Assembly: GCA_016784875.1 (NCBI GenBank)
Contig: JADHTX010000001.1
Span: 1-51,730 of the forward strand
DNA length: 51,730 bases
Direction: 5' to 3'
Source: Methylobacter sp.
GTDB taxonomy: Bacteria; Pseudomonadota; Gammaproteobacteria; Methylococcales; Methylomonadaceae
Shown: positions 4,629 to 51,368 of the stretch, in pieces
Layout of the letters: each line of letters starts with the position of its first letter
How positions within the stretch are numbered: position 1 is the stretch's first letter
Notes under the pieces: generated by a model
The model's database searches: none
What the model saw: the letters and a program-made list of their open reading frames with translations, nothing else
Told to the model about the DNA's origin: nothing
Program-made: the position numbers and the translations under genes

Positions 4629-5994
4629 AAAATTCTGGATAACGACTCCTCTGATATTGGCTTTAGGCTTATTCGGCGGCTACCGGCTTGCTCATTTGCA
4701 AAACAACGAACCGGCGGTGACTTCAGTAGCCGCCAAGCAACCTTTGTTTTACCGCAGTCCGATGAACCCATCGGTCACTTCGTCCGTACCGGCAAAGGAC
4801 GCAATGGGTATGGATTATGTTCCGGTCTATGCACAAGACAGTAACGGAACGAAAGATGTCATCGGCACGGTCAAAATCGATCCGGTCACTGAGCAGGATA
4901 TCGGCGTACGCACGGCCGTGGCTGCCAGGGAAACGCTCTCGCACATTATCCGGGCGGTTGGCCGGGTGGCGTACGATGAAGAACATTTGGTGCGCCTGCA
5001 TCCGAAAACGGAAGGCTGGATTGAGTTACTGCGGGTAGACAAAACGGGCGAATGGGTCAAAAAGAATGAAGACTTGCTCAGTATTTATTCGCCGCAACTG
5101 GTGACCAGTCAACGGGAATACATTCTGGCCTTAAACAATCTTAAAGTTCTGGAAAAAAGTCCGATCGAGGACATTCGCCGTGGCGCGGAAGAGCTGGTTA
5201 AAAGCTCTCTGGAACGCTTGAAACTGCTGGATGTTCCCGATCACCAGTTACGCGATTTGACCGACAGCCATCAAATTAAAAAAAGCCTGCATATTCATTC
5301 GACGGCGGCGGGGATTATTATGAATATCGGCGTCCGTGAGGGCCAGTATGTGACACCGGCTACCGAACTTTATATGATCGCCGATCTGTCCACTGTCTGG
5401 GTGTATGCCGATATTTACGAATACGAATTGCCCTGGGTTAAGGTCGGCGACTCGGTTGAAATGCGTTTGGCTGCTGTGCCGGGGCGAGTGTTTAAAGGTC
5501 ATCTTGTTTTTATTTATCCTTATGCCGAACCTAAAACGCGGACTATTCAAGTGCGGCTTGTGTTCGATAACGCGGAGCTGTTATTAAAACCTGACCTGTT
5601 CGCCGAAATAACGATTCATGCCGGTAAAAAAGTAGAAGCGGTCACCATTCCCACTGAGGCGGTAATCCGTTCCGGCACCCGCAATCAGGTTTTTGTCGTG
5701 CGCGCTCCCGGTAAATTCGAACCGCGCACGGTCACGCTTGGGCTTTCGTCCAACGGCAAAGTGGCGGTATTGGACGGCGTGAAAGCGGGCGAGCGGGTTG
5801 TCATTTCTGCGCAATTCCTGATTGATTCGGAATCCAAACTGCGCGAGGCTGCGACCAAGATGACCGAACCGGATGAACCTGGCGGTTCGCTGAATATGGA
5901 TACCATGCCAGCTAACCCGCCTCCAGGCAGTAACGCTCAAAGTGTCGATAACGGAACGGATGCCGGTCTGTCGGGAGGTAGTCAAGATGATTAA
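4621..5994 (+). CDS. cusB: CusB-like RND periplasmic adaptor with N-terminal Met-rich metal-binding domain
   Basis: YRSPMNP...[12 protein letters not shown] motif, [24 protein letters not shown]. Confidence 0.88.
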
Positions 5995-8900
5995 AGTCTT
6001 GATCAACGGCTCACTGAAAGACCGGTTTATCGTACTTTTGGGTGCTGTTATCCTGGGGGTGGCGGGTTTATGGTCGTTTATAAACATGCCGATGGATGCG
6101 ATTCCGGATTTGTCCGATGTACAAGTCATCGTCTTTACCAAATATCCGGGGCAGGCGCCGCAAGTGGTCGAAGACCAGGTGACTTATCCGTTGACCACGG
6201 CCATGCTGGCCGTCCCGAAGGCCAAGGTTGTCCGGGGCTATTCTTTTTTCGGATTGTCTTTTGTTTACATCATTTTTGAAGACGGCACCGATATTTACTG
6301 GGCCCGTTCGCGGGTGCTGGAATACTTGAATTACGCCGGAAACCGCTTGCCGCAGGGCATTAACCCGGCATTGGGTCCCGATGCCACCGGCGTCGGCTGG
6401 GTTTATGAATACGCGCTGGTCGATAAAACCGGCAAACATGACTTGGCTCAGCTGCGCTCGATTCAGGATTGGTACCTGCGTTATCCGTTGCAGACGGTGC
6501 CCGGTGTTGCCGAAGTCGCATCGGTAGGCGGTTATGTCAAACAATATCAGATCGAAGTTGACCCGAACGCCCTGCTTGCTTACGGCATTCCGCCGGCAAA
6601 GGTCAAGCAAGCCATTCAACGTTCCAATAGCGATGTCGGCGGGCGCCTGATAGAGATGGCCGAAACCGAATATATGGTGCGCGGCTTGGGTTATATCCGC
6701 AGTATCGATGACATCAACAGCATACCCTTGACCGTTGATGCCAAGGGTACGCCGGTTCGGATACAAGATGTCGCCCATGTTCATATCGGTCCCGAATTAC
6801 GTAGGGGGGTGGTAGAACTGGATGGCGAAGGCGAAGTGGCTGGAGGAGTCGTGATCATGCGTTTTGGTGAAAATGCCAAGGCAACCATTGACGGCGTTAG
6901 AGCTAAGCTGGAGGAACTGAAACAAGGACTGCCGGAAGGCGTCGAAATCGTTCCGGTTTATGATCGGGGGGATTTGATTGAACGCGCCGTCGCTACGCTG
7001 AATGAGGCTTTAATCCAGGAACTCATTATTGTTTGTGCCATGGTGGCCTTGTTCTTGCTGCATCTGCGTTCGTCGCTGGTGATCGTGATTACTTTGCCGT
7101 TGGGTATCCTAATGGCTTTCATCGTTATGAAAATACAGGGACTCAACGCTAATATCATGTCGCTGGGGGGGATTGCGATTGCGATAGGCGACATGGTCGA
7201 CGGCGGTATTGTGATGGTCGAGAACGCCCATAAACATTTGGCCGAAGCCTCTGAACGGAAAAAATCGGAACTGACGCAGCAAGAACGCTGGCAAGCCATC
7301 GCCTCCGCATCGAAGGAAGTGGGGCCGACGTTGTTTTTTTCATTACTGATCGTCACCGTTTCGTTTATCCCCATTTTTGCCATGCAGGCGTAGGAAGGAC
7401 GGCTATTCAGTCCGCTCGCTTTTACCAAATCTTACGCGATGGCGGCTGCGGCCTTGTTAACGATTACTGTCGTGCCGGTATTGATGGGCTATTTTATTCG
7501 CGGCAAAATTATTCCCGAGCATAAGAATCCGGCTAACCGTCTTTTGCATTTCATTCATTCGCCGGTGTTAAAAACGGCTATGCGTCGGCGCCCGGTTACC
7601 TTATTAATAGCCGTAATCTTACTGGCATCCACGGCTTATCCATTCGCTAAAATCGGCAGTGAATTTATGCCGCCGCTGGATGAAGGAGACATTCTTTATA
7701 TGCCGAGTACCTTCCCCGGTATCTCCATCACCAAGGCCAAGGAGTTGCTGCAACAAACCGATAAAATCCTGAAAACTTTTCCCGAAGTGCAACATGTCTT
7801 CGGTAAAGTCGGACGAGCCGACACTGCCACTGACCCGGCGCCGCTGTCGATGACCGAAACCACAGTGCGGCTCGCTCCCAAAGAAGATTGGCCCAATCCT
7901 GATAAAACCACCCGGCAATTGATGACCGAAATGGACCGGGCGATTCGTTTTCCGGGGGTCACTAATGCCTGGACCATGCCGATTAAAACCCGTATCGATA
8001 TGCTCTCAACCGGCATTAAAACGCCGGTCGGCATCAAAGTGTCCGGTCCGGACTTGAATGAATTGCAGCGTTTGGCCAAGTCGATAGAACAGGCGATGAA
8101 AACCTTGCCGGAAACGTTATCCGCTTTCGGCGATCGCGCCGTGGGCGGCTATTATCTCGATTTCGACATCGATAGGGACGATGCCGCCCGCTACGGATTA
8201 ACGGTCGGCGACGTACAGGATGTCATTCAAAGCGCTATCGGCGGCATGAACGTGACCGAAACGGTGGAAGGCCTGGAACGCTATCCGGTCAATCTGCGTT
8301 ACCCGCGTGAACTGCGGGACAATCCGGATAGCCTGAAACGGGTGTTGATTCCGACCCCGACCGGTACGCAAGTTCCGCTGGCTTTGGTGGCTGATCTTAA
8401 TTTGAGACGAGGCCCCCCAGTCATCAAAAGCGAAAATTCCCGGCCCAATGCCTGGATTTATGTCGATATTAAAACTTCCGATATCGGCGGCTTTGTCGAA
8501 CAGGCCAAGAAGACACTGGCGCAACAGGTCGAAATACCCAAAGGCTATACAGTCAGCTGGTCCGGCCAGTTCGAATATATGGAACGAGCGGCAGAGCGAC
8601 TGCGTTTGGTGGTGCCCATGACATTGCTGTTGATCTTTTTACTGTTGTATTTTAATTTTCGAAACCTGGTCGAGCCGGTCATTGTGATGTTGACGGTTCC
8701 TTTCGGCCTGATCGGCGGTATCTGGACGGTTTACTGGTACGGCTTTAATCTGTCGGTGGCTGTCTATGTCGGCTTTATCGCCTTGGCCGGTACAGCGGCC
8801 GAGACAGGTGCCATGGTATTGAATTTTATTGATATAGAAATCGCCAGGCTCAGGGAAGAAAAACAGGCACCGCTAACGGGACAGGAAATCAAGGATGCTG

Positions 8901-9133
8901 TTGAAGCGGCCACGGCTCTACGCGTACGTCCTGTCGCGATTACCGCTTTTACGACCATGCTGGGCTTGGTTCCGATCATGTGGGCCACCGGCTCCGGCGC
9001 CGATGTGACTCAGCGCATCGCCGCGCCGGTGTTGGGCGGTATGCTGACCGTATTGATGCTGAGCCTGCTGGTGTTTCCGGTGATTTACAGTTTGGTATTG
9101 CAGTTTCAGGAACGACATAGGCAGGTGCTTTGA
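5987..9133 (+). pseudogene. cusA: CusA/CzcA heavy-metal RND transporter with a single in-frame TAG at 7391-7393
   Basis: [59 protein letters not shown]. Both track ORFs (5942-7393, 7439-9133) are in the same frame and the gap reads FAMQA*EGRLFSPLAFTKSYAM, the conserved QEGRLF.PLAFTK segment. Confidence 0.9.
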
Positions 9134-26220: not shown

Positions 26221-26574
26221 TTATTTAGCCGTCAACGCCACGTCTTTAAAACGAATGCCATCCCAGCCGTATTGCATGAAATTCCTGATGTTTTGGTGAC
26301 CTGTGCCGTGCGGATCGTTTAAAACATCCAGCCGGTAATAGTCGCCGAACAGGTTTAAGGTCTGTTGTTGATCGAGTTGGTTGAGTTGGGCGAAGGCGAA
26401 AATCTTGCAGGAGCCTTCGTTGGTACCTGCTTTATTAACCAGCAATTGCTCATTCAGGCCGTTGCAAAACTCGGTGGCTTGGTAATGGTAGTTTTCGGTA
26501 ATGACCGAGATAGTTTCATCGAAACTGACAGGGTCATTATTTTTTATTTTTTCAATAAAAGAGATAAGCGACAT
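26221..26574 (-). CDS. HopJ type III effector-like protein
   Basis: N.AGTNEGSCKIFAFA, FGDYYR.DVL..P.G..HQNIRNFM..GW.GI.F. Confidence 0.85.
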   Translation of the reverse strand: MSLISFIEKIKNNDPVSFDETISVITENYHYQATEFCNGLNEQLLVNKAGTNEGSCKIFAFAQLNQLDQQQTLNLFGDYYRLDVLNDPHGTGHQNIRNFMQYGWDGIRFKDVALTAK

Positions 26575-31475: not shown

Positions 31476-34400
31476 ATGTACCACGTTCCGCGTACCTGCA
31501 CCGAAAAAAAAATTGATGATGGGGTCGAGAGTCGTCCAATTACCGACTTCAGGGAGAGGGCAGCCTATGTCTTGCTGGGCGAGCCCGGCGCAGGAAAATC
31601 AACCCTATTCGAAGAAGAAGCCGATAACACCGTCAACGGCCTTTGCATTTCCGCCCGCGATTTCATCGTTCTCGACCCAAAGGAATGGCGGGATAAAACC
31701 TTATTTATCGATGGCCTGGATGAAGCAAGAGCGGGCAAAGACGATGCCCGCACGCCGTTAGACGCCATTCGCGGCAGACTCAGTCAATTAGGCTGTAAAT
31801 GTTTCCGTATTTCCTGCCGGGAAGCCGACTGGCTGGGTTCACCCGATGCCAATGATTTGGAAAGAATCAGCCCTAACCAGGCAATAACCATTCTGCATTT
31901 AAACCCGCTTAGCAGTGACGACATTGAGCAGATAGTAAACAACGATCAGCGAGTGCCTGATCCGAACGGCTTTATTGAAAAAGTCGAACAACTCGGCTTG
32001 TCCGGTTTGCTAAACAACCCGCAAACCTTGGATATGCTGATTAATGCTGACATAGGTGGTCATGCGAGGCCGAAAAGTAAACAGGAAGTTTATGAATTGG
32101 CCTGTAAACAACTGGCATCCGAATTTAATGACGATCATGCCGTAACGCAAACAGCCACGATCCCACAATTAATGGAAGCGGCAGGTTTTTTGTGCGCGGT
32201 ACAACTTATCGCAAATATTTCCGGCTTCACTGAAGGCCAAGCCGGGGAAGGCCGGTTGAGCCTAAAAGAATTGACCATTCCGAATGACTTACCCATACAC
32301 GCTGCCTTAAAAACGCGGTTATTTAACAAGGTCGGAAATAATGAGTTCAGCTACATACATCGCAGTGTGGCGGAATATCTGGCGGCACAATTCATAGCGG
32401 GAAAAATCAATCAAGGCTTATTGATTAACAGGGTACTGGCGCTAACCAGTGGTTTTGATGGTGGTATAGTCGCTGCCTTGCGCGGGTTAATGGCTTGGTT
32501 GAGTGTGCATTCCGAGCAAGCGCGGGAGCGTTTGATTGAGATTGATCCTGTCGGCATCATCGTCAATGGCGATGCGTTGCTTTTTCCCAGACAAGCTAAA
32601 TCCCAATTATTTCTCGCTCTGATTAGGGAGGCAGAAACTACCGCTTTCCCTAATCGGGATTGGCATACCACAGCATTCGCAGCAATCACCACTAGGGACA
32701 TGGCGAATGAGCTAATCGAGATACTGAACAGCCAGAGTCGTAATGATGGTGAGCAATTCCTTTTGTACTGTTTATTAAAAGGTTTGTCCTGTTCCGAGTC
32801 GATAGCGGAAATCAAAGTATCGTTGCTAGCGATTATTCGTGACAACTCCTATTGGGAGGCAATACGTGGTAATGCACTCAATGCATTTCTTCATCAATAT
32901 CCCGAAGACCTGGATAGCTTGTTGCTATTGGCCGAGGATATTCGACAAGGCAAAGTTGAGGAAACAGAAAATGGCCTTATGGAAACATTGCTGGACAGGT
33001 TATTTCCAGCAAAAATTGGTGCTTCCAACCTACTCAAATACCTAATACCGCCAAAAAATAATCGCGTCATTCTTTATCATTATTTTTGGCGGACGATTCT
33101 ATCAGAACGTTTAACAGATATTGATCTTGCCGTAATCCTCGACCAGCTTTTTGAACTGGGATCAGTTTTCTGGGAAGGCGTGCATGAGGATTTTATTGTC
33201 GAGACGGTGGGACAATTATTAATACGGGGTTTGCAGGTTCATGGATTAAACATTAGCTCTGAGCGACTCTATCGTTGGCTGTCCATCGGTATAGATCAGT
33301 ATGATGATTGTAGGCTCACACTAGAACAGCGTCAGCAAATCGCTAACTGGATTGACTCCCATCCTGATTGTTACCTAACAGCTATCCGTGAAGGATTAAA
33401 GCAAATAAAAGACTTTGAAAATATCAATTGGGAAATTCATAAAATATTTTCACGATTACACGGCGCCACTCCGCCCAATAACCTTGCGCAGTGGTGGCTT
33501 AATCAAGCGCTATCGGAAACCGACATCAAATTGAGCTGTGCTTATTTTGAACAGGCATTCGTAACACTGTACGACCAACAGAACGATAGTGACTTATCCC
33601 TGGATTATTTTGTTGATTGGTTAGAAGATCATCCCGAATTCCGTGACACTTATCAGAACTTGACTTATTGCGTTATTCCAGACTGGCGACTTAAACGTGC
33701 TAACTCAACACAAAAATGGGCGAACCAACGTGATGAAGAACAACGCAAAAAACTGAGCTACTTACATGAACATCAAGCGCAAATTGCCGACGGCAGCGCA
33801 CCTCCGCAACTCTTTCATCAGCTGGCGATAGCGTTTAATCACCGTGTCCAAATCAGCGGCAAATCACGCGAAGAACGTTTATCTGAGTTTCTGAATGGCG
33901 ATGAAATACTTATAGCCTCTGCAAAAGCTGGTTTCCGAAAAATACTACAACGAACCGACTTGCCAACGTCTCATGAGATATACAAGTCGGCGGCAAAAAG
34001 CGGTGAGTACCATTACATCCGCCTACCTTTTCTGGTTTGCATGGATACGCTTTATCAGGAAAATCCTGCCATGCTCGAAATACTAAGTGATGAGTTACTT
34101 AGCAAAGCCGTGGCTTTTTGTTATGCGGAAGGTAATTCTCATGAAGCTTGGCTTAAATCGCTTTGTCAGTCGAAGCCGGAATTAGTCTCACGCTTATTTA
34201 TCGATTATGTCGTCGCGCTTTTAGCTGCTAAAAGTCAATTTATTCATGGACTGCATAATCTGGCTTATGACCAAGATTTCCAGAAAATTACCCAGCTGAC
34301 GGTTATGCCTTTGCTCAATAAATATCCGGTTAGAGGTTATAAAAATCATATTACCCATCTCCATTACCTGCTTGACGCCGCTATTGCAAACATTGATAAG

Positions 34401-35477
34401 CAGGAGTTGTTAACGCTGATTGAAAAAAAGCTGGCTTGTAAAGGTATGGACTTAGCTCAACACATTTACTGGCTTGCTGCCGGTCTGGTCATAGCGCCCG
34501 GAGTATATGAGGCCAAAATCAAACAAACTCTTTTAGGAAAAAGCGAACGTATCAATCGTTTGTCCGATTTTTTGTGCCCAAGTTTTGTATCAAAAATGTA
34601 CGACAGATACGACTTTCCTGCATCAACTAAAGGAATGTTGATCGAATTATTCGCACCACGCTGCAATCCTGAATGGCCTAGAGGCGGTGGCATTGTGACA
34701 CGCGCAATGGAAGAAAGGGACTATGTTCGATTTTTACTCAACAGCCTTGCTTACAATCCCGGCGAGGACAGTGCAGTAATTTTGGCCGATTTACTGAAAC
34801 AATCTGAATTAAGCGCTTGGCATACACAAATTCAAAACGCCCAACAAACCCAACAACTAAGCCGCAGAGAAGCATTGTTCAAACATCCCAATGCTATGCA
34901 GGTTATAAATACGCTCGGCAATTCAAAACCGGCTAATGTCGCTGATTTAGCGGCACTGACTGTTGATTGCTTGGAGCAACTTGCAGCAGAAATGCATGGC
35001 AGCAATACCGATAGCTATAAACATTTTTGGAACTTAAAACCCGACAGCCCCAAAGACGAAAATGAATGCCGTAATTATTCAGTTGTAAGACTCAAACCAT
35101 TGCTTTTGCCGTATGGTGTCAGCGTCGAACTTGAAGCTTATCAAGCCAAACAGAAACGTGCAGATATGACAGTATCATTTACTGGCGAAGGTAAAACATT
35201 CTACCTTCCTATCGAAATTAAACGCGATTATAACGATAAATTATGGAAAACCATCCACGAACAACTGATACCTTTTTACACCATTGCACCGGAAACCGAA
35301 GGCCGAGGCCTATTTTTAGTCATTTGGTTTAATTATGCAAAAATACCTACCCATCCTAAAGGCCTGCCTCCGCCAAAGTCAGCGGAACATTTAGCCGCGA
35401 TGCTTAAAGATACAATGACGCAGCAGGAACAAAAACTGATTAATATTTTTGTACTTGATGTTTCAAAAAAACACTAA
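31476..35477 (+). CDS. Large NACHT/STAND-type NTPase with C-terminal PD-(D/E)xK-like domain
   Basis: VLLGEPGAGKST, LFIDGLDE, RISCR, NNPQTL, YIHRSVAEYLAA; long Leu-rich helical middle; C-terminal KRADM...LPIEIK. Confidence 0.75.
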   Translation: MYHVPRTCTEKKIDDGVESRPITDFRERAAYVLLGEPGAGKSTLFEEEADNTVNGLCISARDFIVLDPKEWRDKTLFIDGLDEARAGKDDARTPLDAIRGRLSQLGCKCFRISCREADWLGSPDANDLERISPNQAITILHLNPLSSDDIEQIVNNDQRVPDPNGFIEKVEQLGLSGLLNNPQTLDMLINADIGGHARPKSKQEVYELACKQLASEFNDDHAVTQTATIPQLMEAAGFLCAVQLIANISGFTEGQAGEGRLSLKELTIPNDLPIHAALKTRLFNKVGNNEFSYIHRSVAEYLAAQFIAGKINQGLLINRVLALTSGFDGGIVAALRGLMAWLSVHSEQARERLIEIDPVGIIVNGDALLFPRQAKSQLFLALIREAETTAFPNRDWHTTAFAAITTRDMANELIEILNSQSRNDGEQFLLYCLLKGLSCSESIAEIKVSLLAIIRDNSYWEAIRGNALNAFLHQYPEDLDSLLLLAEDIRQGKVEETENGLMETLLDRLFPAKIGASNLLKYLIPPKNNRVILYHYFWRTILSERLTDIDLAVILDQLFELGSVFWEGVHEDFIVETVGQLLIRGLQVHGLNISSERLYRWLSIGIDQYDDCRLTLEQRQQIANWIDSHPDCYLTAIREGLKQIKDFENINWEIHKIFSRLHGATPPNNLAQWWLNQALSETDIKLSCAYFEQAFVTLYDQQNDSDLSLDYFVDWLEDHPEFRDTYQNLTYCVIPDWRLKRANSTQKWANQRDEEQRKKLSYLHEHQAQIADGSAPPQLFHQLAIAFNHRVQISGKSREERLSEFLNGDEILIASAKAGFRKILQRTDLPTSHEIYKSAAKSGEYHYIRLPFLVCMDTLYQENPAMLEILSDELLSKAVAFCYAEGNSHEAWLKSLCQSKPELVSRLFIDYVVALLAAKSQFIHGLHNLAYDQDFQKITQLTVMPLLNKYPVRGYKNHITHLHYLLDAAIANIDKQELLTLIEKKLACKGMDLAQHIYWLAAGLVIAPGVYEAKIKQTLLGKSERINRLSDFLCPSFVSKMYDRYDFPASTKGMLIELFAPRCNPEWPRGGGIVTRAMEERDYVRFLLNSLAYNPGEDSAVILADLLKQSELSAWHTQIQNAQQTQQLSRREALFKHPNAMQVINTLGNSKPANVADLAALTVDCLEQLAAEMHGSNTDSYKHFWNLKPDSPKDENECRNYSVVRLKPLLLPYGVSVELEAYQAKQKRADMTVSFTGEGKTFYLPIEIKRDYNDKLWKTIHEQLIPFYTIAPETEGRGLFLVIWFNYAKIPTHPKGLPPPKSAEHLAAMLKDTMTQQEQKLINIFVLDVSKKH

Positions 35478-39802: not shown

Positions 39803-42145
39803 ATGGTTATTTCCGCTCTGTCATTTTTAGCCGGGTTGTTGCTGGTTCAACAGTTTTCGGTATTGCCGGATGTTAAATGGCTGATAGTCGGTGCGGTAGT
39901 GGTCGGCAGTATTGCATGGTTGCGTTATTGGCGATGCCTGTTCTTTTCGGTTGGCGTTTTGTGGGCGATAGTGTTTGCCATGCATCGATTGTCCAGCCAG
40001 TTGCCTGAGTCATTAGAGGGTATTGAGATTCAGGTGAGCGGCGTCATAGCCGATTTGCCGGTGCAAGACGAAAAGCGAGCCCGTTTTGATTTTATCCCCA
40101 GGGATGGGGTGTATGCCGCAAGCCCGTCGGGAACGGGTGCGGCGATCCCCAGGGATAGTGCATATGGGAGAGCTGCTAATGAGCCTGCTCAACACTTACC
40201 CGCCAAACTGCGATTAAGCTGGTATTACCCTGATCAGCAAATCAAGGCAGGCCAGCATTGGACTTTTACCGTCAAACTAAAGCGCATCCACGGCACTATG
40301 AATCCCGGCGGCTTTGATTATGAACGCTGGCTATTTACCGAAGGCATCGGTGCGACAGGCTATGTTCGGCCTAACCATAAGCCGGTTTTACTGGGTCGCG
40401 ATTCGGCCTGGAGCAGTATTTCCGTCTGGCGGCAGAGTATCGCCGATCGGCTTTCAAGCCTATTAGGCAATAGCCCAAGTCTTGGGCTGATAAAGGCGCT
40501 GACCATTGGCGACGCAAGCCGCATCTCGCAAAAGCAATGGGAGATTTTTCGCAAAACCGGCACGGTTCATTTGATGGTGATTTCCGGCTTGCATATCGGC
40601 CTTGTTGCCGGGCTGGTGTATTTTTTGGTGCTTAAATTGTGGGCGTGGACGGGTTTGTTGGCATGGTCGCCGCAAAGAGTCTCGGCAGTGGTGGCGGTGT
40701 TGGCTGCGATTTTTTATTCAGGATTGGCCGGTTTTTCCGTGCCTACTCAGCGCTCGGTGGTTATGTTATCTATCGCCATGACGGCGATTATTCTGCAACG
40801 CAACTCCCGCCCCCTTAATACCTTAGCCATCGCCTTGTTTGCCGTATTGATATTCGATCCGTTAGCGGTGCTGGCGGCAGGATTCTGGCTGTCGTTTCTC
40901 GCCGTAAGTGTCATCGTTTATGCCGTTTCCGGGCGCTTGGGCAAGGCCGGGTATTTATGGAGTGCCTTGAAAATACATTGGGTTACCTCGGTGGGTTTAT
41001 CGCCTTTGTTGCTGCTGTTTTTCCAGCAGGTTTCGCTGATTGCGCCGCTGGCTAACTTGTTTGCCGTGCCGGTCATCAGCCTGCTGGTAGTACCGTTGTC
41101 GTTGCTGGCGGTCATGGTCATGTTTGTATCAGCAACGCTGGCGGACAAGTTGTTCTTTTTGGTCGATCGCCTGCTGCAAGGTTTATGGTGGTTTTTGGAA
41201 TATTTTGCGGAACTCCCGATGGCATCGATAACGCATGAACCACCTTCGTATTGGGCGTTATTTTTCGCTGTGCCGGGGATGATGCTGTTGCTTGCACCGG
41301 TAGGCATTCCGGCGCGTTGGCTAAGCTTGGTGATGTTTTTACCGTTGCTGTTTACCGAGGTAAAGCGACCTGAAATCGGCGACATCAATATGACCTTACT
41401 GGATGTCGGACAAGGTTTATCGGCGGTTGTGCAAACTGCCGAACATCTGCTGGTTTACGATACTGGTGCAAAATTTTCGGCTGACAGCGATATGGGGCAA
41501 CGGGTAGTGCTGCCATTTTTGCACTTGCAAGGTCTAAACAAAATTGACAGCCTGATTATCAGTCATGGCGACAACGATCATATCGGCGGCGCGGCATCGT
41601 TAATGCACGGCATGGATACCGTGCAAGTATTAACCAGTGTCCCGCAAAAGTTGATTGAGTACGCGCCAATCGAGTGTATAGCCGGGCAATCGTGGCTATG
41701 GGATGAGGTTGAATTCACTATGTTGGGGCCAGCACAGGCATTTAACTCAAAAAACGACAGCTCCTGCGTGCTGAAAATTCAGTCGAAACACGGCACGCTA
41801 TTATTGACCGGCGACATTGAAGCGACAGCAGAATCCTGGCTGGTTGATACTTACGGCGAGGCGTTAAAAGCCGAGGTGTTAGTCGCCCCGCATCATGGCA
41901 GCAAGACTTCATCGACAATGAGTTTTTTGCGCGCCGTACAGCCGGAGTATGTATTGATTCCGGCAGGTTACCGCAGTCAATTCGGTCATCCGCATAAAGA
42001 TGTTTTGGCGCGCTATCGGCGAATCAATGCGACATGGCTAAATAACGCCGACAGCGGGGCGATTTTTGTCAATGTTATCAATAATGCTTGGGCAGTGCAG
42101 GGGATGCGGCAGATGGAAAGTAAGTATTGGAATTTTAAAAAATAA
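39803..42145 (+). CDS. comEC: DNA internalization competence protein ComEC/Rec2
   Basis: NPGGFDYE, TGT.HL..ISGLHIG, LDVGQG, SHGDNDH.GG, LTGDIE, PHHGSKTSS; carries an in-frame insertion at about 40094-40190. Confidence 0.95.
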   Translation: MVISALSFLAGLLLVQQFSVLPDVKWLIVGAVVVGSIAWLRYWRCLFFSVGVLWAIVFAMHRLSSQLPESLEGIEIQVSGVIADLPVQDEKRARFDFIPRDGVYAASPSGTGAAIPRDSAYGRAANEPAQHLPAKLRLSWYYPDQQIKAGQHWTFTVKLKRIHGTMNPGGFDYERWLFTEGIGATGYVRPNHKPVLLGRDSAWSSISVWRQSIADRLSSLLGNSPSLGLIKALTIGDASRISQKQWEIFRKTGTVHLMVISGLHIGLVAGLVYFLVLKLWAWTGLLAWSPQRVSAVVAVLAAIFYSGLAGFSVPTQRSVVMLSIAMTAIILQRNSRPLNTLAIALFAVLIFDPLAVLAAGFWLSFLAVSVIVYAVSGRLGKAGYLWSALKIHWVTSVGLSPLLLLFFQQVSLIAPLANLFAVPVISLLVVPLSLLAVMVMFVSATLADKLFFLVDRLLQGLWWFLEYFAELPMASITHEPPSYWALFFAVPGMMLLLAPVGIPARWLSLVMFLPLLFTEVKRPEIGDINMTLLDVGQGLSAVVQTAEHLLVYDTGAKFSADSDMGQRVVLPFLHLQGLNKIDSLIISHGDNDHIGGAASLMHGMDTVQVLTSVPQKLIEYAPIECIAGQSWLWDEVEFTMLGPAQAFNSKNDSSCVLKIQSKHGTLLLTGDIEATAESWLVDTYGEALKAEVLVAPHHGSKTSSTMSFLRAVQPEYVLIPAGYRSQFGHPHKDVLARYRRINATWLNNADSGAIFVNVINNAWAVQGMRQMESKYWNFKK
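40094..40144 (+). repeat. 51-bp in-frame coding double-hairpin element, copy 1 (in comEC)
   Basis: ATCCCCAGGGATGGGGTGTATGCCGCAAGCCCGTCGGGAACGGGTGCGGCG; 42/51 identical to 47471-47521; first 12 bp repeated directly after it (40145-40156). Confidence 0.88.
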
Positions 42146-44117: not shown

Positions 44118-44124
44118 TGAACGG

Positions 44125-44396
44125 ATGATTTCCTATGATGACAATAAACGCCAAATTAATTTGAAAAAGCATGGCATTGATTTAGCGGAATGTGTCAGCA
44201 TCTTCGATCACTTAATGATTACCAAAGAAGACGCGCGTGAAAATTATGGCGAACAGCGCTTACAAAGTTTAGGATTATTGAATTCCGTTGTCGTTTTTAT
44301 GGTTTGGATTGATAAGGTTGAGCTCCACATTTAATTTAAGTTCGTGAGGCTACTAAATATGAGCAAAAATACTACTACGCCAACATTGGCTACTGA
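44125..44396 (+). pseudogene. BrnT family toxin, frameshifted and with nonsense codon
   Basis: YDDNKRQINLKKHGIDL...D.RENYGE.R. The C-terminus continues in another frame as APHLI*VREATKYEQKYYYANIGY (TAA 44337-44339 at the Ser of IS.R.A). Confidence 0.8.
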
Positions 44397-44640
44397 AGAA
44401 CCGCCTTATAACCCTGACGATCTTGATTCAGTAGAAAACTTTTGGGAAGGTGCCCGTATTGAACATCAAGGTAAAATTATCGGCGTAAGTCATCGTATAA
44501 AAGAATGTGAATTAGCAAAGGTTCAAGTCACTTTAACCTTATCACCGCAGGTGGTCGATTTTTTTAAAAACACAGGCAAAGACTGGCAAACGCGAATGGA
44601 TGAGGCGTTGATTGAATATATTGAAACGCATCATGCTTAA
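44359..44640 (+). CDS. BrnA family antitoxin
   Basis: KVQVTLTLSPQVVDFFKNTGKDWQTRMDEAL ribbon-helix-helix motif; ATG 44359. Confidence 0.85.
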   Translation: MSKNTTTPTLATEEPPYNPDDLDSVENFWEGARIEHQGKIIGVSHRIKECELAKVQVTLTLSPQVVDFFKNTGKDWQTRMDEALIEYIETHHA

Positions 44641-44641
44641 T

Positions 44642-44848
44642 ATGAAATATAAAATGATTATTTACTGGAGCGAAGAAGATCAAGCTTATATCGCCGAAGT
44701 GCCGGAATTAGCCGGTTGTATGGCCGATGGGAGCAGTTATCAAGAAGCGGTTAGCAATGCTGAACGGGTTATTGCTGAATGGATAGAGACTGCCGTAGAA
44801 CTGGGTCGGCATGTTCCCGAGCCTAAAGGGCGATTGTTATATGCCTAA
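44642..44848 (+). CDS. Short HicB family antitoxin (no hicA adjacent)
   Basis: Y..IIYWSEEDQAYIAEVPELAGCMADG.SY.EA..N....I.EWIETA.ELGR..PEP. Confidence 0.85.
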   Translation: MKYKMIIYWSEEDQAYIAEVPELAGCMADGSSYQEAVSNAERVIAEWIETAVELGRHVPEPKGRLLYA

Positions 44849-44878
44849 GTAAGCAATGTTTTTAAAATAAGGCCGTTC

Positions 44879-45493
44879 ATGGGTAATTCGAATGAAACAA
44901 GCAGTGCTGATTTCAATAGCATCAAAACAGGATGGGTTCTAGCAATACTTGTTGTAATAGGGTTGGTTATTGTCGGTTTCTATTTCTTTAATTTCAATTC
45001 TCATATACTAAAAAACGAGGGTTGGTGGAAAGTTTTTCAAAACCTGTCCGCAGATACTGGAAATTGAGGAACATTTGGCGATTATGTTGGCGGCATACTT
45101 AATCCGGTTATTGCTGGATTTGCATTTTATTTGATAGCCAAGACTTATGAGCTTCAAAAAAGCGAGTCGACAAAAACTATAAAAATAGCTGCACTGACTG
45201 CGCTTCTTAATTCGAATTTAACAAAAATTGGTTTGCTGAGAACCGAAAAAGTCGAACTATTAGGCCAAATACCGCAAGAACATCAACAGGATATGCTCCG
45301 TGATATAGAAAATGACAAATATGACAAATCCGAAAAAAATCAATTTGATAAAGAAATATCGACAGGACGTAATAGGCTTAATTATCGCGAATATTACGAT
45401 CTAATAACAAGAGTGCCCCAAATAGATCGGGAAATTGAGATATTAAGGATTAAGAATTTTAAGCTAGAAGAAAAAATTACGTTTTTTCTTTAA
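44879..45493 (+). pseudogene. Membrane protein with WGxFGDYxGG motif, interrupted by in-frame TGA (45065-45067)
   Basis: Two track ORFs in the same frame, joined by DTGN*GTFGDYVGGILNPVIAGFAFYLIAKTY. Confidence 0.75.
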
Positions 45494-45557
45494 AAATAGC
45501 CCGACCTACAGTACTTTGGCAGAGATATAGACTTATGATCAATCCAAGGAAAATGCA

Positions 45558-45809
45558 ATGTTAGAAACCACAGCGACCAAGTTAATTAAGAACTTACCCA
45601 AGGAAATAGAACCTTGTTTTAATAGCCATGAAGCACTGCACGTTAAACAAGATGATGGTAAAGATTTTGTGATTATCAACGCTGAAGATTGGCGGGCGAT
45701 TGAGGAAACCCTGTTCCTTAATCAAATTCCCGGCATGGTTGCCAGTATTCATGATGCGGCTAACGAATCATTGGACAAAGGTGTTCGTCTACAGGATTTA
45801 GACTGGTGA
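45558..45809 (+). CDS. Phd/YefM family antitoxin
   Basis: V.INAEDWRAIEETLFL..IPGM..SI, ends LDW overlapping yoeB start. Confidence 0.85.
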   Translation: MLETTATKLIKNLPKEIEPCFNSHEALHVKQDDGKDFVIINAEDWRAIEETLFLNQIPGMVASIHDAANESLDKGVRLQDLDW

Positions 45810-46070
45810 CTTGGCAAGTTACTTTAAGTCGGCAGGCGGAAAAGGACGCAAAAAAAATTGCTCAAGCAGGCTTGAAACCGCAAGCCGGAAAATTATTGGA
45901 GCTTTTGACTGAAAACCCATTTACCACACCGCCACCTTATGAAAAATTAGTGGGCAATCTGCAAGGCTTTTATTCCAGACGTATCACTATTCAACATCGC
46001 TTAAGTTTATCGTATTGTTGAAATAGAAAAAGTGATTCATGTGTTGCGGATGTGGACGCATTATGAATAA
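45806..46070 (+). pseudogene. Txe/YoeB family toxin with +1 frameshift at about 46004
   Basis: NPF..PPPYEKLVGNLQGFYSRRITIQHRL, then an extra A; the shifted frame reads VYRIVEIEKVIHVLRMWTHYE*, the canonical C-terminus. Confidence 0.88.
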
Positions 46071-46112
46071 AACAGCGCGTTAAGCGATATTAACAAAACA
46101 ATTGGAACTCTT

Positions 46113-46862
46113 ATGCTCAGCATTAAAAACTTAACCGTCAACGTAAACGACAAACAAATTCTTAAAGGCATTAACCTTGAGATTAAGGCCGGTGAAATCC
46201 ACGCGATTATGGGGCCGAACGGTTCCGGTAAAAGCACCTTGTCGCATGTGCTGTCGGGCAAGGGCGGTTATACCGTGACCGGCGGTTCGGCGACTTATCA
46301 GGGTAAGGATTTGCTGGAGATGGCGCCTGAAATCAGGGCGCGTGAGGGCGTGTTTTTGGCCTTCCAGTATCCGGTTGAAATCCCCGGCGTCAGTAATATT
46401 TATTTATTGAAAGCGGCGCTGAACTCGATACGCAAACACCACGGGCAGCCTGAAGTCGATGCGATGGATTTTTTAACGCTGGTTAAAGAAAAAGTGCGCT
46501 TGCTGGAAATGGATGAGAAGTTTTTGTACCGCGCGGTGAACGAAGGTTTCTCCGGCGGCGAAAAGAAACGCAACGAAATCCTGCAAATGGCTATTTTGGA
46601 ACCCAAGCTGTGTATTATGGATGAAACCGATTCCGGCCTGGACATCGACGCGTTGAAAATCGTCTCGGAAGGCGTTAATTCCTTGCGTTCGCCGGAACGT
46701 TCGTTTGTGATGGTCACCCATTACCAGCGCTTGCTGGACTATATCAAACCGGACTTTGTCCATGTGTTGGCGCATGGTCAAATCGTCAAATCCGGCGGTG
46801 CGGAGCTGGCATTGGAGCTGGAAGAAAAAGGCTACAGTTGGGTTGAAGAGGCGGTAGCGTAA
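46113..46862 (+). CDS. sufC: Fe-S cluster assembly ATPase SufC
   Basis: MGPNGSGKST, FLAFQYPVEIPGV, NEGFSGGEKKRNE, DETDSGLDIDA. Confidence 0.98.
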   Translation: MLSIKNLTVNVNDKQILKGINLEIKAGEIHAIMGPNGSGKSTLSHVLSGKGGYTVTGGSATYQGKDLLEMAPEIRAREGVFLAFQYPVEIPGVSNIYLLKAALNSIRKHHGQPEVDAMDFLTLVKEKVRLLEMDEKFLYRAVNEGFSGGEKKRNEILQMAILEPKLCIMDETDSGLDIDALKIVSEGVNSLRSPERSFVMVTHYQRLLDYIKPDFVHVLAHGQIVKSGGAELALELEEKGYSWVEEAVA

Positions 46863-48235
46863 TGAATACGGCAACAGCAAGCCGTTATACGGCTGAATAC
46901 CAAACCATAGCGTCTGTCTTGCCTGGGCAAAACTTGCCTTGGTTGCAGACCTTAAGAAGCGAGGCTCTGGAGCAGTTTTCTGCGCAAGGATTTCCATCGC
47001 CGCGCGAGGAAGAATGGCGCTATACCAATGTGTCCGGCATTGAAAAGAAACTGTTTTCGCCGTCGGTCGATTTAACTACTATTGATATAAACGCAGACTG
47101 GCTAAAAGCCTATCGATTGGAAGATGCTTGGGTTTTGGTTTTGGTGAACGGCCATTTTTCAGCCGAGCTTTCGGTCTTAGAGGGTCTGCCCGAAGCCGTT
47201 ACTGTGATGGGTATGGCTGAAGCGTTGGCAAAGCAGCCGGATACAGTGGAAAAATATTTAGGGAAGGGTGCCGATCAATCTGAGCACAGTTTTATTGCTT
47301 TCAATACGGCATGGTTTACCGATGGCCTGTTTGTGCATGTGCCTGCCAAACTGGTTTTAGACAGGCCGATACAGTTGCTGCACATTGTGACCGGCAGCGA
47401 TGCAATGGCTACGACCCGCAATATTGTTATTGCTGACGCTTTGGCCGAAGCTAAAGTCATAGAGACGTTTATCTCCAGGGATGGAGTGTATGCCGCGAAT
47501 CTGTCAGGAACAGATGCGGCGCTGGGACAAGACAGCGCTTACTTAACCGCCGCAGTCACCGAAGTTTTCGTCGGGAAAAACGCCGATGTGACCTTGTACA
47601 AACTGCAAAGCGAGTCGGAAAAAGCCTACCATTTTGGCGGCTGCTACGTTAAACAGGCGAGAGATGCCCGCTTTACCCATCACAATTTCGCTTTTGGCGG
47701 TTTGCTGGCGCGCAGTGATATTCATGTCGATCTCGATCATGCGTCTGAGTGCGAACTGAACGGTTTGTACTTAGGTATCAAGCGTCAGCATCTCGACAAC
47801 CACACCCGAATCAACCATTTAAAGCCTCATGCGATCAGCCGCGAGCTGTATAAAGGCGTATTGGACGATAGAGCCAGAGGTGTGTTTCAGGGGAGGGTGA
47901 TTGTGTCTGAGGATGCGCAGAAAACCGATTCGCAAATGAATAACCGTAATCTGCTGTTATCGGACGATGCCGAAGCGGATACCAAGCCGCAGCTGGAAAT
48001 TTATGCCGATGATGTGAAATGTGCTCATGGCGTGACGGTGGGGCAGCTGGACGAAAAATCCATTTTCTATCTGCAATCACGTTGCGTAGATGAAGAGACA
48101 GCTCGGAACATGCTGACCTTTGCCTTCGCCAACGAAATGGTCGATAAGGTCAAGATTAAAAGCTTACACGATAAGGTTTTAGAACAGGTGTTGGTGCGTT
48201 TCCCGCAACAAGGCGTGAACAAAGAATGGCTATAA
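46862..48235 (+). CDS. sufD: Fe-S cluster assembly protein SufD
   Basis: EEWRYT, AQKTD, NLLLS..AE.DTKPQLEIYADDVKCAHG.TVG; contains a 17-aa insertion. Confidence 0.96.
   Translation: MNTATASRYTAEYQTIASVLPGQNLPWLQTLRSEALEQFSAQGFPSPREEEWRYTNVSGIEKKLFSPSVDLTTIDINADWLKAYRLEDAWVLVLVNGHFSAELSVLEGLPEAVTVMGMAEALAKQPDTVEKYLGKGADQSEHSFIAFNTAWFTDGLFVHVPAKLVLDRPIQLLHIVTGSDAMATTRNIVIADALAEAKVIETFISRDGVYAANLSGTDAALGQDSAYLTAAVTEVFVGKNADVTLYKLQSESEKAYHFGGCYVKQARDARFTHHNFAFGGLLARSDIHVDLDHASECELNGLYLGIKRQHLDNHTRINHLKPHAISRELYKGVLDDRARGVFQGRVIVSEDAQKTDSQMNNRNLLLSDDAEADTKPQLEIYADDVKCAHGVTVGQLDEKSIFYLQSRCVDEETARNMLTFAFANEMVDKVKIKSLHDKVLEQVLVRFPQQGVNKEWL
47471..47521 (+). repeat. 51-bp in-frame coding double-hairpin element, copy 2 (in sufD)
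   Basis: ATCTCCAGGGATGGAGTGTATGCCGCGAATCTGTCAGGAACAGATGCGGCG encodes ISRDGVYAANLSGTDAA. Confidence 0.88.
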
Positions 48236-48796
48236 AATGTCGGCGATGTTGATGGTAAGCTGGTTTATCTGAGACAAGGTGACGCTATCGCCAATCCGCA
48301 ATGTGGTTTTTTCGCCATAACAATCGCCATGCGGTTGGCGGTATACTTCGACGCAGGAGTCGTTCAAGTTCATCAGCCAGTATTCAGGGATGTTATGGCT
48401 GGCGTATAAACGCAGTTTCTGGTTTTGGTCGAAACTGAGCGAACTGTCGGCGACTTCAATCAGCAGCAAAACGTCATCGGCAGTAGGGTGACGGGATGAG
48501 TAGAAATCATCGCTCGGTTTTAACAGCATAAAATCGGGTTCGGGTTCTGAAAGGTCGCCGAGTTGTAATGGGTCTTGGACGCTGAGAATGGCTTTACCGA
48601 AAGCCAAGGCGGATAGTCTGTTATTTAAACGTTTTACATGTCCTGCATGATTACAACCGATAGGGGCCATTTCTAAAATTTCTCCATTGATAAGCTCAAG
48701 CCGACTTTCAGGCGGAAAAATATTAGCTTCGCCCAATCTTTGCCATTCATTAATATCGGTGAGATGTTTGCGTACACCCGCAGTTGCTGTAGCCAT
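48230..48796 (-). CDS. Uma2 (DUF820) family PD-(D/E)xK endonuclease-like protein
   Basis: RLELINGEILEMAPIG..H, SEPEPD, LLIEVADSSL..D...K...YA...IPEYW. Confidence 0.9.
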   Translation of the reverse strand: MATATAGVRKHLTDINEWQRLGEANIFPPESRLELINGEILEMAPIGCNHAGHVKRLNNRLSALAFGKAILSVQDPLQLGDLSEPEPDFMLLKPSDDFYSSRHPTADDVLLLIEVADSSLSFDQNQKLRLYASHNIPEYWLMNLNDSCVEVYRQPHGDCYGEKTTLRIGDSVTLSQINQLTINIADIL

Positions 48797-50555: not shown

Positions 50556-51368
50556 ATGTCGTCGCAAAAAAACGCCGGTGCCGCGCCTGTTCCTGACAAG
50601 CTTATAACATACACGCCATCAAAACCGGCGGTACTTTATCAAGGGCAGGGCGATAGCCTGCCTTTTCAGCAGCTGGCAGACAGGTTGGGCGTTCCTTTGC
50701 ATCAATCCCCAAGCGATACTCAGGAAGAATTCTTTTTAACCTGGCGCGATGGTTGCTTAAAGCTGCTCGACCGGGAGCTGCTTAAAAAAGGCGGCATGAC
50801 TGTCGAAATAGAGCCGCGCAACGGAGAGCAGCGTTCATGGCCTGCACCCAAAGACGGCGCGTTGGCGCAGGCTTTGGGACGAAAAACCAGAACCGTTGTC
50901 GATGCGACTACCGGCTGGGGTCAGGACAGTCTGCACATCTTCCGCATGGGCTACGAACTGCTGTGTATCGAACGATCTCCGGTTATGGCGGAATTGCTGG
51001 CAGACGGTTTTGTTCGACTGGCGCAACTTGACTGGATGCAGCGGCTTAATCTTGAGTCGCCCCGATTGCTACAGGGCAATGCCATTGACTTGTTAGCCAA
51101 TCTGGAAACTCAGCCTGATTGTATTTATCTTGATCCGATGTTTCCGCCTAAGCGCAAAAAATCCGCATTAGCTAAAAAATCCATGATGGTGTTGCGCGAT
51201 TTGCTGGGCGACGACCCGGACAAGGAGCAACTTTTTGAGGCCGCGATAAATGCAGCCGGAAAACGGGTGGTGGTGAAAAGCCCCGATTATGCCGAACCTT
51301 TGGGCGGTAAGCCTAGCCAAAGTTTCCAGGGCAAGTTGCTGCGGTATGATGTTTATTTGAAAGGTTAA
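50556..51368 (+). CDS. rsmJ: 16S rRNA m2G1516 methyltransferase RsmJ-like
   Basis: VVDATTGWGQD, ERSP, YLDPMFP, KRVVVK.P, RYDVY. Confidence 0.85.
   Translation: MSSQKNAGAAPVPDKLITYTPSKPAVLYQGQGDSLPFQQLADRLGVPLHQSPSDTQEEFFLTWRDGCLKLLDRELLKKGGMTVEIEPRNGEQRSWPAPKDGALAQALGRKTRTVVDATTGWGQDSLHIFRMGYELLCIERSPVMAELLADGFVRLAQLDWMQRLNLESPRLLQGNAIDLLANLETQPDCIYLDPMFPPKRKKSALAKKSMMVLRDLLGDDPDKEQLFEAAINAAGKRVVVKSPDYAEPLGGKPSQSFQGKLLRYDVYLKG

Follow-up and report, generated by a model that had tools for sequence, protein, structure and literature searches.

In this study, we analysed a 51,730-nucleotide stretch of DNA from Methylobacter sp. (the window, which is contig C165 of a 2.97-Mb genome with a completeness of 81%) and we describe in it a 51-base repeat, family A, that lies in frame within the sufD gene, folds into two hairpins carrying GGA loops, and occupies exact, polymorphic and target-specific insertion sites. 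On these grounds we conclude with high confidence that the element is or was mobile, which bears out the first of the two roles (a mobilisation signal, or a portable CsrA-binding module within mRNAs) that a preliminary description of this DNA had considered. As to how it moves, we lean towards a non-autonomous element whose folded single strand would be recognised by a strand-transfer enzyme acting in trans, with the HUH (IS200/IS605-RAYT) type as the likeliest candidate. The 51-base in-frame twin-hairpin family is undescribed in the literature searched (listings and the beginnings of abstracts). The general phenomenon of in-frame palindromic repeats is already known, and what family A adds to it is resolved junctions, a target rule and a polarity of its arrays.

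A 51-base element with two conserved hairpins

The element, its parts and its other copies in the window are located as follows.

47471..47521, + strand: the 51-base element of family A, in frame as SufD residues 204-220, delimited by the period of tandem arrays and by the difference between filled and empty alleles.
47473..47486, + strand: hairpin 1, formed by element positions 3-16, whose loop is of the ANGGAN type and whose pair 4/15 covaries; from the fold and covariation.
47488..47491, + strand: a linker of four bases, conserved and possibly a guide motif, at the 5' foot of hairpin 2.
47492..47520, + strand: hairpin 2 (positions 22-50), with a 2-base bulge, a CNGGA loop and a variable, compensated inner stem, from the fold and covariation.
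47468..47470, + strand: left target flank, outside the element, in which the T at 47470 is the invariant -1 base; from site clusters, and retained in empty alleles.
47522..47525, + strand: right target flank, in which the G at +4 is native to the host; from site clusters, and retained in empty alleles.
46862..48235, + strand: the host gene sufD (Pfam and TIGR01981).
40094..40144, + strand: a second intact copy, in frame in comEC (39803-42145), the first unit of a polarised array (repeat search, BLAST).
40145..40195, + strand: the decayed second unit of the comEC array, of which about the first 22 bases still match (nhmmer, allele comparison).
50579..50629, - strand: a third copy, decayed and without hairpin 1, which lies in antisense orientation within the 5' part of an rsmJ-like gene (nhmmer, E 4.5e-7).

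The preliminary description had placed the sufD element at 47468..47530; the core of that interval stands, and its boundaries do not, since the true unit runs from 47471 to 47521 and the interval took in three extra bases on the left and nine on the right. The sufD and comEC copies are paired by a repeat search over 54 bases at 83% identity, and match within the genome with a BLAST E of 7.8e-10. The nine differences that had been listed between them were each found on both copies: pairs 4/15, 30/44 and 32/42 are C-G in comEC and T-A in sufD, and the remaining changes fall at position 29 (G.T to A-T with 45), position 27 (in the bulge) and position 36 (in the loop). The minimum-energy structure computed for the sufD copy, as RNA and as DNA, consists of the two hairpins, and the folding of single copies goes only modestly beyond chance (z of -1.96 and -2.02; 8/200 shuffles each). 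The sufD allele with the insert recurs on independent contigs from other samples.

The covariation across the family carries the two-hairpin structure much further, and the predicted pairs are recovered in the larger alignment that had been suggested as a check. We ranked pairs by mutual information with average product correction over 170 distinct in-register units, and the top 12 were, in order, 32/42, 29/45, 34/40, 4/15, 26/46, 30/44, 25/47, 26/29, 31/43, 50/51, 23/49 and 24/48. Ranks 8 (26/29) and 10 (50/51) are not base pairs; the nine base-pairing entries among the top pairs had all been predicted. The pattern used to collect most of the units fixes part of positions 5-41, whose invariance is thus partly by construction; the 3' partner positions 42-51 lay outside it. 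In a hand-picked alignment of 15 copies, 11 of 15 pairs change on both sides, which none of 500 shuffles matched, and 94% of the cells pair, against 31-57% in slid controls. The top strand folds more stably as DNA in 147 of the 170 units.

The details of the two hairpins differ. Hairpin 1 matches CANGGANG in 164/170 units, with variation limited to the two N positions. Its inner pair A7-T12 never shows a compensatory change (A7 is present in 169/170), and hairpin 1 can therefore equally be read as an ANGGAN hexaloop closed by a C-G pair. In hairpin 2 the loop reads CNGGA, and the A of ANGGA is present in only 6 of the 170. Linker positions 18-21 are kept in 167-170 of the 170 units of this pattern-biased set, and also in 19/20 sufD and 42/42 comEC units found by homology.

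Nine wobble positions of the element are invariant in 17/17 sufD first units, likewise found by homology, whereas the 4-fold sites in the rest of sufD have a mean major-base frequency of 0.78 and only 10/93 of them are invariant. The constraint is thus at the nucleotide level, and spans loops, linker and stems. First- and second-codon-position changes are moreover coupled to wobble partners. It had been proposed that selection acts on nucleic-acid structure rather than on the peptide; the coupled changes and the invariant wobbles support the part on structure, while "not peptide" proves too strong for the retention of copies, the reading frames being non-random (see below). The insert coincides with a gap against E. 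coli SufD 1VH4. In an AlphaFold2 model of SufD, mediocre overall with a mean predicted local distance difference test score (pLDDT) of 69, residues 207-225 have a pLDDT below 50 and fall between strands 196-205 and 227-237, which would place the insert in a loop between two predicted beta-strands.

Insertion sites, arrays and distribution

The clearest record of insertion comes from sufD itself. Among 37 parsed congeneric alleles from 43 genomes (two rows from named records were excluded), 11 are filled at site 1, three of them with two tandem units; 5 are filled at a second site 12 bases downstream of site 1; 3 are hybrids or deletions that lack the 12 native bases; and 18 are empty, so that the native SufD loop without the 17 codons, which had only been predicted, exists. 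The insert starts with ATC even where the native right flank is GTC or GTT, hence there is no target duplication. A second site, in contig C112, likewise shows an exact 51-base indel (7 filled and 23 empty of 30 alleles), and a target-site duplication is ruled out by the exact indels at both. The base at -1 of the C112 site is T in 7/7 filled alleles, which probably have one origin, and in 11/23 empty ones. At comEC, two empty alleles were parsed. On a sufD tree computed without the loop, in which 8 of 27 inner branches are well supported, filled and empty states are scattered, with six changes for six rows at site 1, and the filled G000 is sister to the empty G009 with a support of 100/100.

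A target rule was obtained by grouping 164 arrays by their left flank into 78 site clusters, of which at least two duplicate others. The -1 base is T in 78/78, -2 is A or T in 73/78 and +4 is G in 60/78; positions -3 and -4 are loose, and the target sites are old. The rule is therefore (A/T)T^NNNG. At comEC, the wobble base at -1 is T in 35 of 36 alleles, whereas the Phe codon two upstream has T in 11/36, and the single allele with C at -1 carries only an element remnant.

The arrays have a direction. Comparing the scores of first and last units in 60 arrays with two or more units, and applying no filter to first units, we found the first ahead in 48, the last ahead in 8 and 4 ties; by site cluster the first beats the last 27 to 1 with 2 ties (27/28 informative). 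In 13 of these arrays the weak units are those nearest the 3' end, and in none of the 60 do they occupy the 5' end. The comEC alleles stack differing variants ahead of decayed ones, and some arrays hold identical or alternating units. Because the T stays outside and the start of the element itself fits NNNG, repeated insertion at one T would yield the observed order.

Sites are mostly inside genes, as called with a purpose-built dicodon model for this genome and for the site clusters: 71 of the 78 clusters lie within coding sequence, as do 28 of the 32 sites in this genome (15 sense, 13 antisense and 4 intergenic). Across clusters, 36 are sense, 35 antisense and 7 unclear, against a sense share of 59% expected from target availability (p=0.15). 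The frames are less evenly used: sense frames 0/1/2 hold 31/1/4 clusters against 22/6.3/13.8 expected, and antisense frames 17/2/16 against 14.9/5.1/8.9 (overall p=3.6e-4), which argues that the peptide filters the copies that survive. Where the target is TT, a stop closes one of the antisense frames. Four of the six frames are used repeatedly. Pairing is as complete in antisense units (0.911, n=96) as in sense units (0.894), three of the 78 frame labels having been hand-corrected for this comparison. On the element's strand, antisense units carry 55 G.T against 29 A.C mismatches (p=0.006) and sense units 77 against 62; pair 4/15 is G.T in 70 units and A.C in 0. The conserved fold lies on the element's own strand, regardless of whether it is present in the host mRNA.

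A family profile built with nhmmer from 20 seed copies gave 85 matches in the genome and 3 weak ones (E>2) in its reversed version; counting family-A-like units at E<0.05, the genome holds 47 units at 32 sites. The exact 21-base pattern occurs in 23/24 congeners and in 0/16 other genomes of the order, and the two-hairpin pattern in 7/33 members of the family and 0/87 genomes from other families of the order. Among named genomes, a scan gave at least 128 loci, and the 80 titles listed are Methylobacter, Methylovulum, Methyloglobulus, Methylococcaceae or gammaproteobacteria. In a class-wide sample, 3 of 300 other genomes were positive, two (one distant genus) with an A-like unit and one with a single C-like unit. 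The two A-like carriers, G187 and G352, belong to a gammaproteobacterial genus outside the order. Their unit is 52-53 bases long and starts with AG or AA, which together with the kept -1 T gives a TAG or TAA stop; the copies inspected are at gene ends, and one further copy is in another register. Horizontal transfer is the simple reading of this distribution. In these genomes (L358-L366, L375-L385), one A-like unit stands at the end of a probable sufB (L359, named by eye). At the other extreme, the 99% complete congener G008 has no exact match to the pattern of A or of the sister family B, and its comEC holds a decayed two-unit tandem remnant.

Searches of reference collections returned little. 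NCBIfam has no model for the element peptide. Rfam gave no match in the window at gathering score nor around the element at E<=10, and at 8 array-bearing loci only a tRNA and three sub-threshold matches. Viral contigs gave 4 short matches, none of them a full element, and 0 for the two-hairpin pattern.

Family A has sisters. Families B, C and others, of 51-52 bases, share with it the way hairpin 1 is laid out and a GGA loop in hairpin 2, and differ in linker and target: B inserts after CG (8/8) and C after a pyrimidine and G (8/9). Examples are at G000:C14:3751-3866, C30:2626-2829, C112:6712 and C174:9668-9769, and at L312-L327 and L658-L666. The B-type pattern is found in 39 of 43 genomes of the genus; its 52-base variants in Methylobacter lie between genes or at gene ends, and family C nests reversed inside family B. 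One protein loop (G000:C264, near 23426; orthologues L484-L513) has taken up three unrelated repeat families across congeners, which are family A, another family with GGA loops and, in 5 genomes, a REP of the GTGG type.

How the element may have spread

Our preference for the HUH type of enzyme rests on the signature of IS200/IS605 elements, namely hairpins specific to one strand, a target beyond the left end and no duplication, as given in the parts of the descriptions that were available (PMC3333891, PMC6006769). Under this scheme, the target T would remain outside the element and the element's first bases would recreate NNNG, so that each later copy would land ahead of the resident one. Recombination between tandem units could then collapse arrays, by which old sites would be refreshed and hybrids and deletions arise. 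Copies would persist in genes since 51 is a multiple of three, the loops are tolerant and the frame is filtered by selection. The joint lack of intact A and B copies in G008 supports a mover acting in trans.

The likeness to IS200/IS605 ends, and to REP/BIME repeats moved by TnpA-REP (RAYT), extends to several points in the portions consulted of the literature (PMC3333891, PMC6006769, PMC3479197, PMC8266576): one active strand, strand-specific imperfect hairpins (here near both ends), insertion 3' of a target outside the left end without target duplication, and local tandem amplification. REP guides, according to the excerpts seen (PMC3479197, PMC8266576), are a conserved four-base motif at the hairpin foot, as is the linker of family A, which predicts -2 poorly. 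The differences, within the same limits of these sources, are that family A has no flanked Y1 gene among the loci inspected and a cut at (A/T)T^NNNG instead of C^T or a tetranucleotide; that IS608 and ISDra2 have a lagging-strand bias and family A none; and that tandem BIME copies are near-identical, whereas adjacent family A units often differ. Membership of the GTAG-type REP/RAYT group was rejected: units have no 5' GTAG or GTGG, their ends being ATCG/ATCT/ATCA and CGCC/TGCC (the five commonest classes, 124/170), no flanking Y1 gene was found in 124 loci, and the location is mostly coding and not extragenic. All that stands ahead of hairpin 2 is an internal GTAT.

A number of observations weigh against our preferred reading. 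Of 145 matches to Y1 transposases in 21 genomes, 124 loci were inspected over about 1.5 kb on each side; family A flanks none of them, although one has a family A copy inside a neighbouring permease gene. No single Y1 cluster spans all element-bearing genomes (86/124 proteins parsed), and one Y1 gene persists in G008, which has no intact copy by the patterns used. Replication-strand bias is absent by a contig-level proxy, the G/T-rich strand carrying 11 of the 28 sites that could be scored (p=0.34). The target, as read from these old sites, consists of one or two fixed bases and a downstream G, and is no tetranucleotide; the putative guide predicts A at -2, yet T is commoner (47 vs 26); and the units have no GTAG or CGTC tag. 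No excised or empty allele appeared among the joints listed from population contigs, which drop rare variants. Site-specific variants at comEC show compensatory change in place, which insertion alone does not explain. Finally, hairpin 1 is intact in 159/163 sense and 86/96 antisense units (p=0.009, the units being non-independent).

Other searches for an enzyme were equally negative. Family A flanks none of 21 GIY-YIG loci; the neighbouring open reading frames (ORFs) of 287 element loci form 258 clusters, of which the first 140, judged by eye, are housekeeping with no transposase; and loop-motif pairs and arrays, followed in near-complete and other genomes, pointed to nothing but housekeeping operons.

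The first alternative keeps the mobile element and changes the class of its enzyme, to an RNA intermediate with a reverse transcriptase, an Ssn-like single-strand nuclease with host repair, or an IS110-type recombinase. We regard it as unlikely, though it gains from the missing strand bias and the missing flanked Y1 gene, and the tolerance of G.T suits RNA as much as DNA. In the reverse-transcriptase variant, the GGA loops would be bound by CsrA on the element's own RNA, and twin hairpins with GGA loops do recur in the multicopy TwoAYGGAY RNA family, in what could be seen of its recent description (bioRxiv 10.64898/2026.09.22.753630). Sister family B has the same CG on both sides of the cut (8/8), as a recombinase core would; family A, to the contrary, has ends without a common core, and it shows neither target duplication nor 5' truncation. 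No reverse transcriptase or IS110 gene was recognised by eye in 140 of the 258 neighbour clusters, the two families not having been profiled.

As for Ssn, genes of this kind exist here, and their CGTC-type flanking repeats carry CAGGGAT hairpins; even so, the SRM pattern fits 0/170 units and none of the 21 GIY-YIG loci is flanked by family A, on which grounds membership of the SRM/CGTC group was rejected. Five small GIY-YIG genes (L232, L234, L235, L238, L239; G000:C63:4178-4396) are flanked by CGTC/SRM-like repeats, which are probably an Ssn system of Methylobacter with a separate repeat family. One of the hairpins of these repeats reads like a CsrA consensus. Judging from the portion of the Ssn paper at hand (PMC11893778), the likeness between family A and the Ssn motifs (SRM/NTS, CGTC-type) served by the GIY-YIG enzyme SsnA is that of hairpin repeats handled as single-stranded DNA, and the difference is that family A neither fits the SRM pattern nor flanks ssn-like genes.

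TwoAYGGAY (RF01731) is described, in the part of the source consulted, as an intergenic RNA of 168 positions with a common basal stem and two AYGGAY loops (PMC2864571). With this extract and the beginning of the later account (PMC2864571, bioRxiv 10.64898/2026.09.22.753630) as a basis, it resembles family A in its two successive GGA-loop hairpins and in being dispersed, multicopy and variable in number. It differs in that loop 1 of family A is mostly ARGGAT (a pyrimidine at the Y position in 17/170) and loop 2 CNGGA, and that no basal stem is among the covarying pairs. Family A is not a member, the RF01731 model giving 0 matches in the genome at E<=10 and none in the window or at the 8 loci. 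A bolder possibility, which we hold doubtful, is that family A, its sisters and TwoAYGGAY form one cross-phylum class of minimal mobile elements, whose mover would be neither a known RAYT nor Ssn and might work through a CsrA-bound RNA intermediate.

It is less likely again that the spread was ancient and needs no present enzyme, with gene conversion homogenising the copies, template switching producing the compensation, and homologous recombination between strains moving the alleles. The correction of quasi-palindromes by template switching is established. Many sites are common across the genus (164 arrays fall into 78 clusters), variants particular to one site and hybrid units are seen at comEC and sufD, the units of some arrays are identical or alternate, and the sufD tree is poorly resolved, all of which this account would accommodate. 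Template switching, however, spares neither loops nor linker, yet the wobble positions are invariant in the sufD first units; and the polarity towards the -1 T, the family-specific -1 base (T for A; G in 8/8 B and 8/9 C) and the disappearance of intact A and B copies together from G008 suggest a factor acting in trans. The same target rule also holds for the related form in a distant family.

The remaining alternative was the portable CsrA module, in which CsrA/RsmA dimers would bind both GGA loops in host mRNA and tune translation or stability, copies being kept for this reason; it is improbable, and failed on one half of the refuting test set for it, the strand bias relative to transcription, sense and antisense copies being equally frequent among the clusters and in this genome alike. 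ANGGA is the motif bound by CsrA in hairpin loops. A csrA gene is present in this genome, hairpin 1 preserves the motif in nearly all units with only its N positions varying, and its excess of intact copies in sense orientation, reported above, is also seen in this genome alone (14/15 sense vs 7/13 antisense sites). This excess may also be explained by a better-tolerated sense-frame-0 peptide. Antisense copies retain the top-strand fold although their mRNA lacks it, hairpin 2 has hardly ever an ANGGA, and copies are mid-gene rather than at ribosome-binding sites. The sites are also dispensable, as the empty alleles at sufD (18/37) and C112 (23/30) demonstrate, and G008, G153 and G155 retain csrA while intact copies are absent or scarce there.

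Among the known in-frame repeats, RPE and the intragenic GTAG/CGTC REPs are palindromic and in frame in unrelated housekeeping genes, from what could be read of PMC10969869 and PMC3733652. Family A belongs to the RPE-like class in this descriptive sense, as a dispersed palindrome in frame in unrelated genes and absent from orthologues. On the same partial view of these sources, the likeness includes plausibly flexible loops and repeat ends that supply stops (here in the 52-base form). Elements of the RPE-1 type measure about 150 bases and have a conserved peptide, whereas family A has 51 bases and uses four of six frames. Unlike this group in general, it has no GTAG/CGTC tag, is mostly intragenic, and has a resolved target rule and array polarity. 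The repeats called SDR are 21-27 bases long. The tandem junction of family A contains the HIP1 octamer; targeting to HIP1 was rejected, as the octamer is not over-represented in the genome (34 observed vs 45.8 expected) and is not the first-insertion target. In these two respects family A differs from cyanobacterial SDR5, with which it shares, according to the sections seen (PMC4390886, PMC5861425), a very small size and a precise insertion in a short target.

Neighbouring genes and significance

The window holds several further features around the suf genes. The sufB-sufC junction (44118-46112) is split by toxin-antitoxin modules, with BrnA and Phd/YefM-type antitoxins (Pfam); the toxin-like frames there look broken by eye, and a 120-codon ORF has no Pfam match. 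No duplicated sufC start was seen between sufB and sufC. A gene for a Uma2-family nuclease is antisense between sufD and sufS (48230-48796, - strand). Elsewhere, a CusA/AcrB-type efflux gene occupies two consecutive ORFs (5942-7393 and 7439-9133; ACR_tran 3-453 and 471-1020), and is either a split gene or an assembly error. An ORF of 1333 codons without a Pfam match (31476-35477) is behind an AAA_14/DUF4143 gene, and a 117-codon ORF (26221-26574, - strand) of this environmental genome matches Pfam HopJ (PF08888).

In conclusion, the spread of very small bacterial repeats is still an open problem: the parts of the literature consulted demonstrate no mover for RPEs, CGTC repeats or TwoAYGGAY. 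Family A offers handles for the search for an enzyme, in its exact junctions, its one-base target that differs between sisters and its directional arrays, and the congeners without intact copies, together with a distant carrier lineage, make this search a tractable profiling problem. If the cross-phylum class were real, family A would be a handle on its enzyme and a potential tool for scarless insertion of 51 bases. For the hosts, the length and first bases of the unit decide whether a repeat resides within genes, as with 51 bases, or at stop codons, as with 52; loops of housekeeping proteins such as SufD and ComEC in abundant methanotrophs carry a repeat-derived peptide that varies by species.

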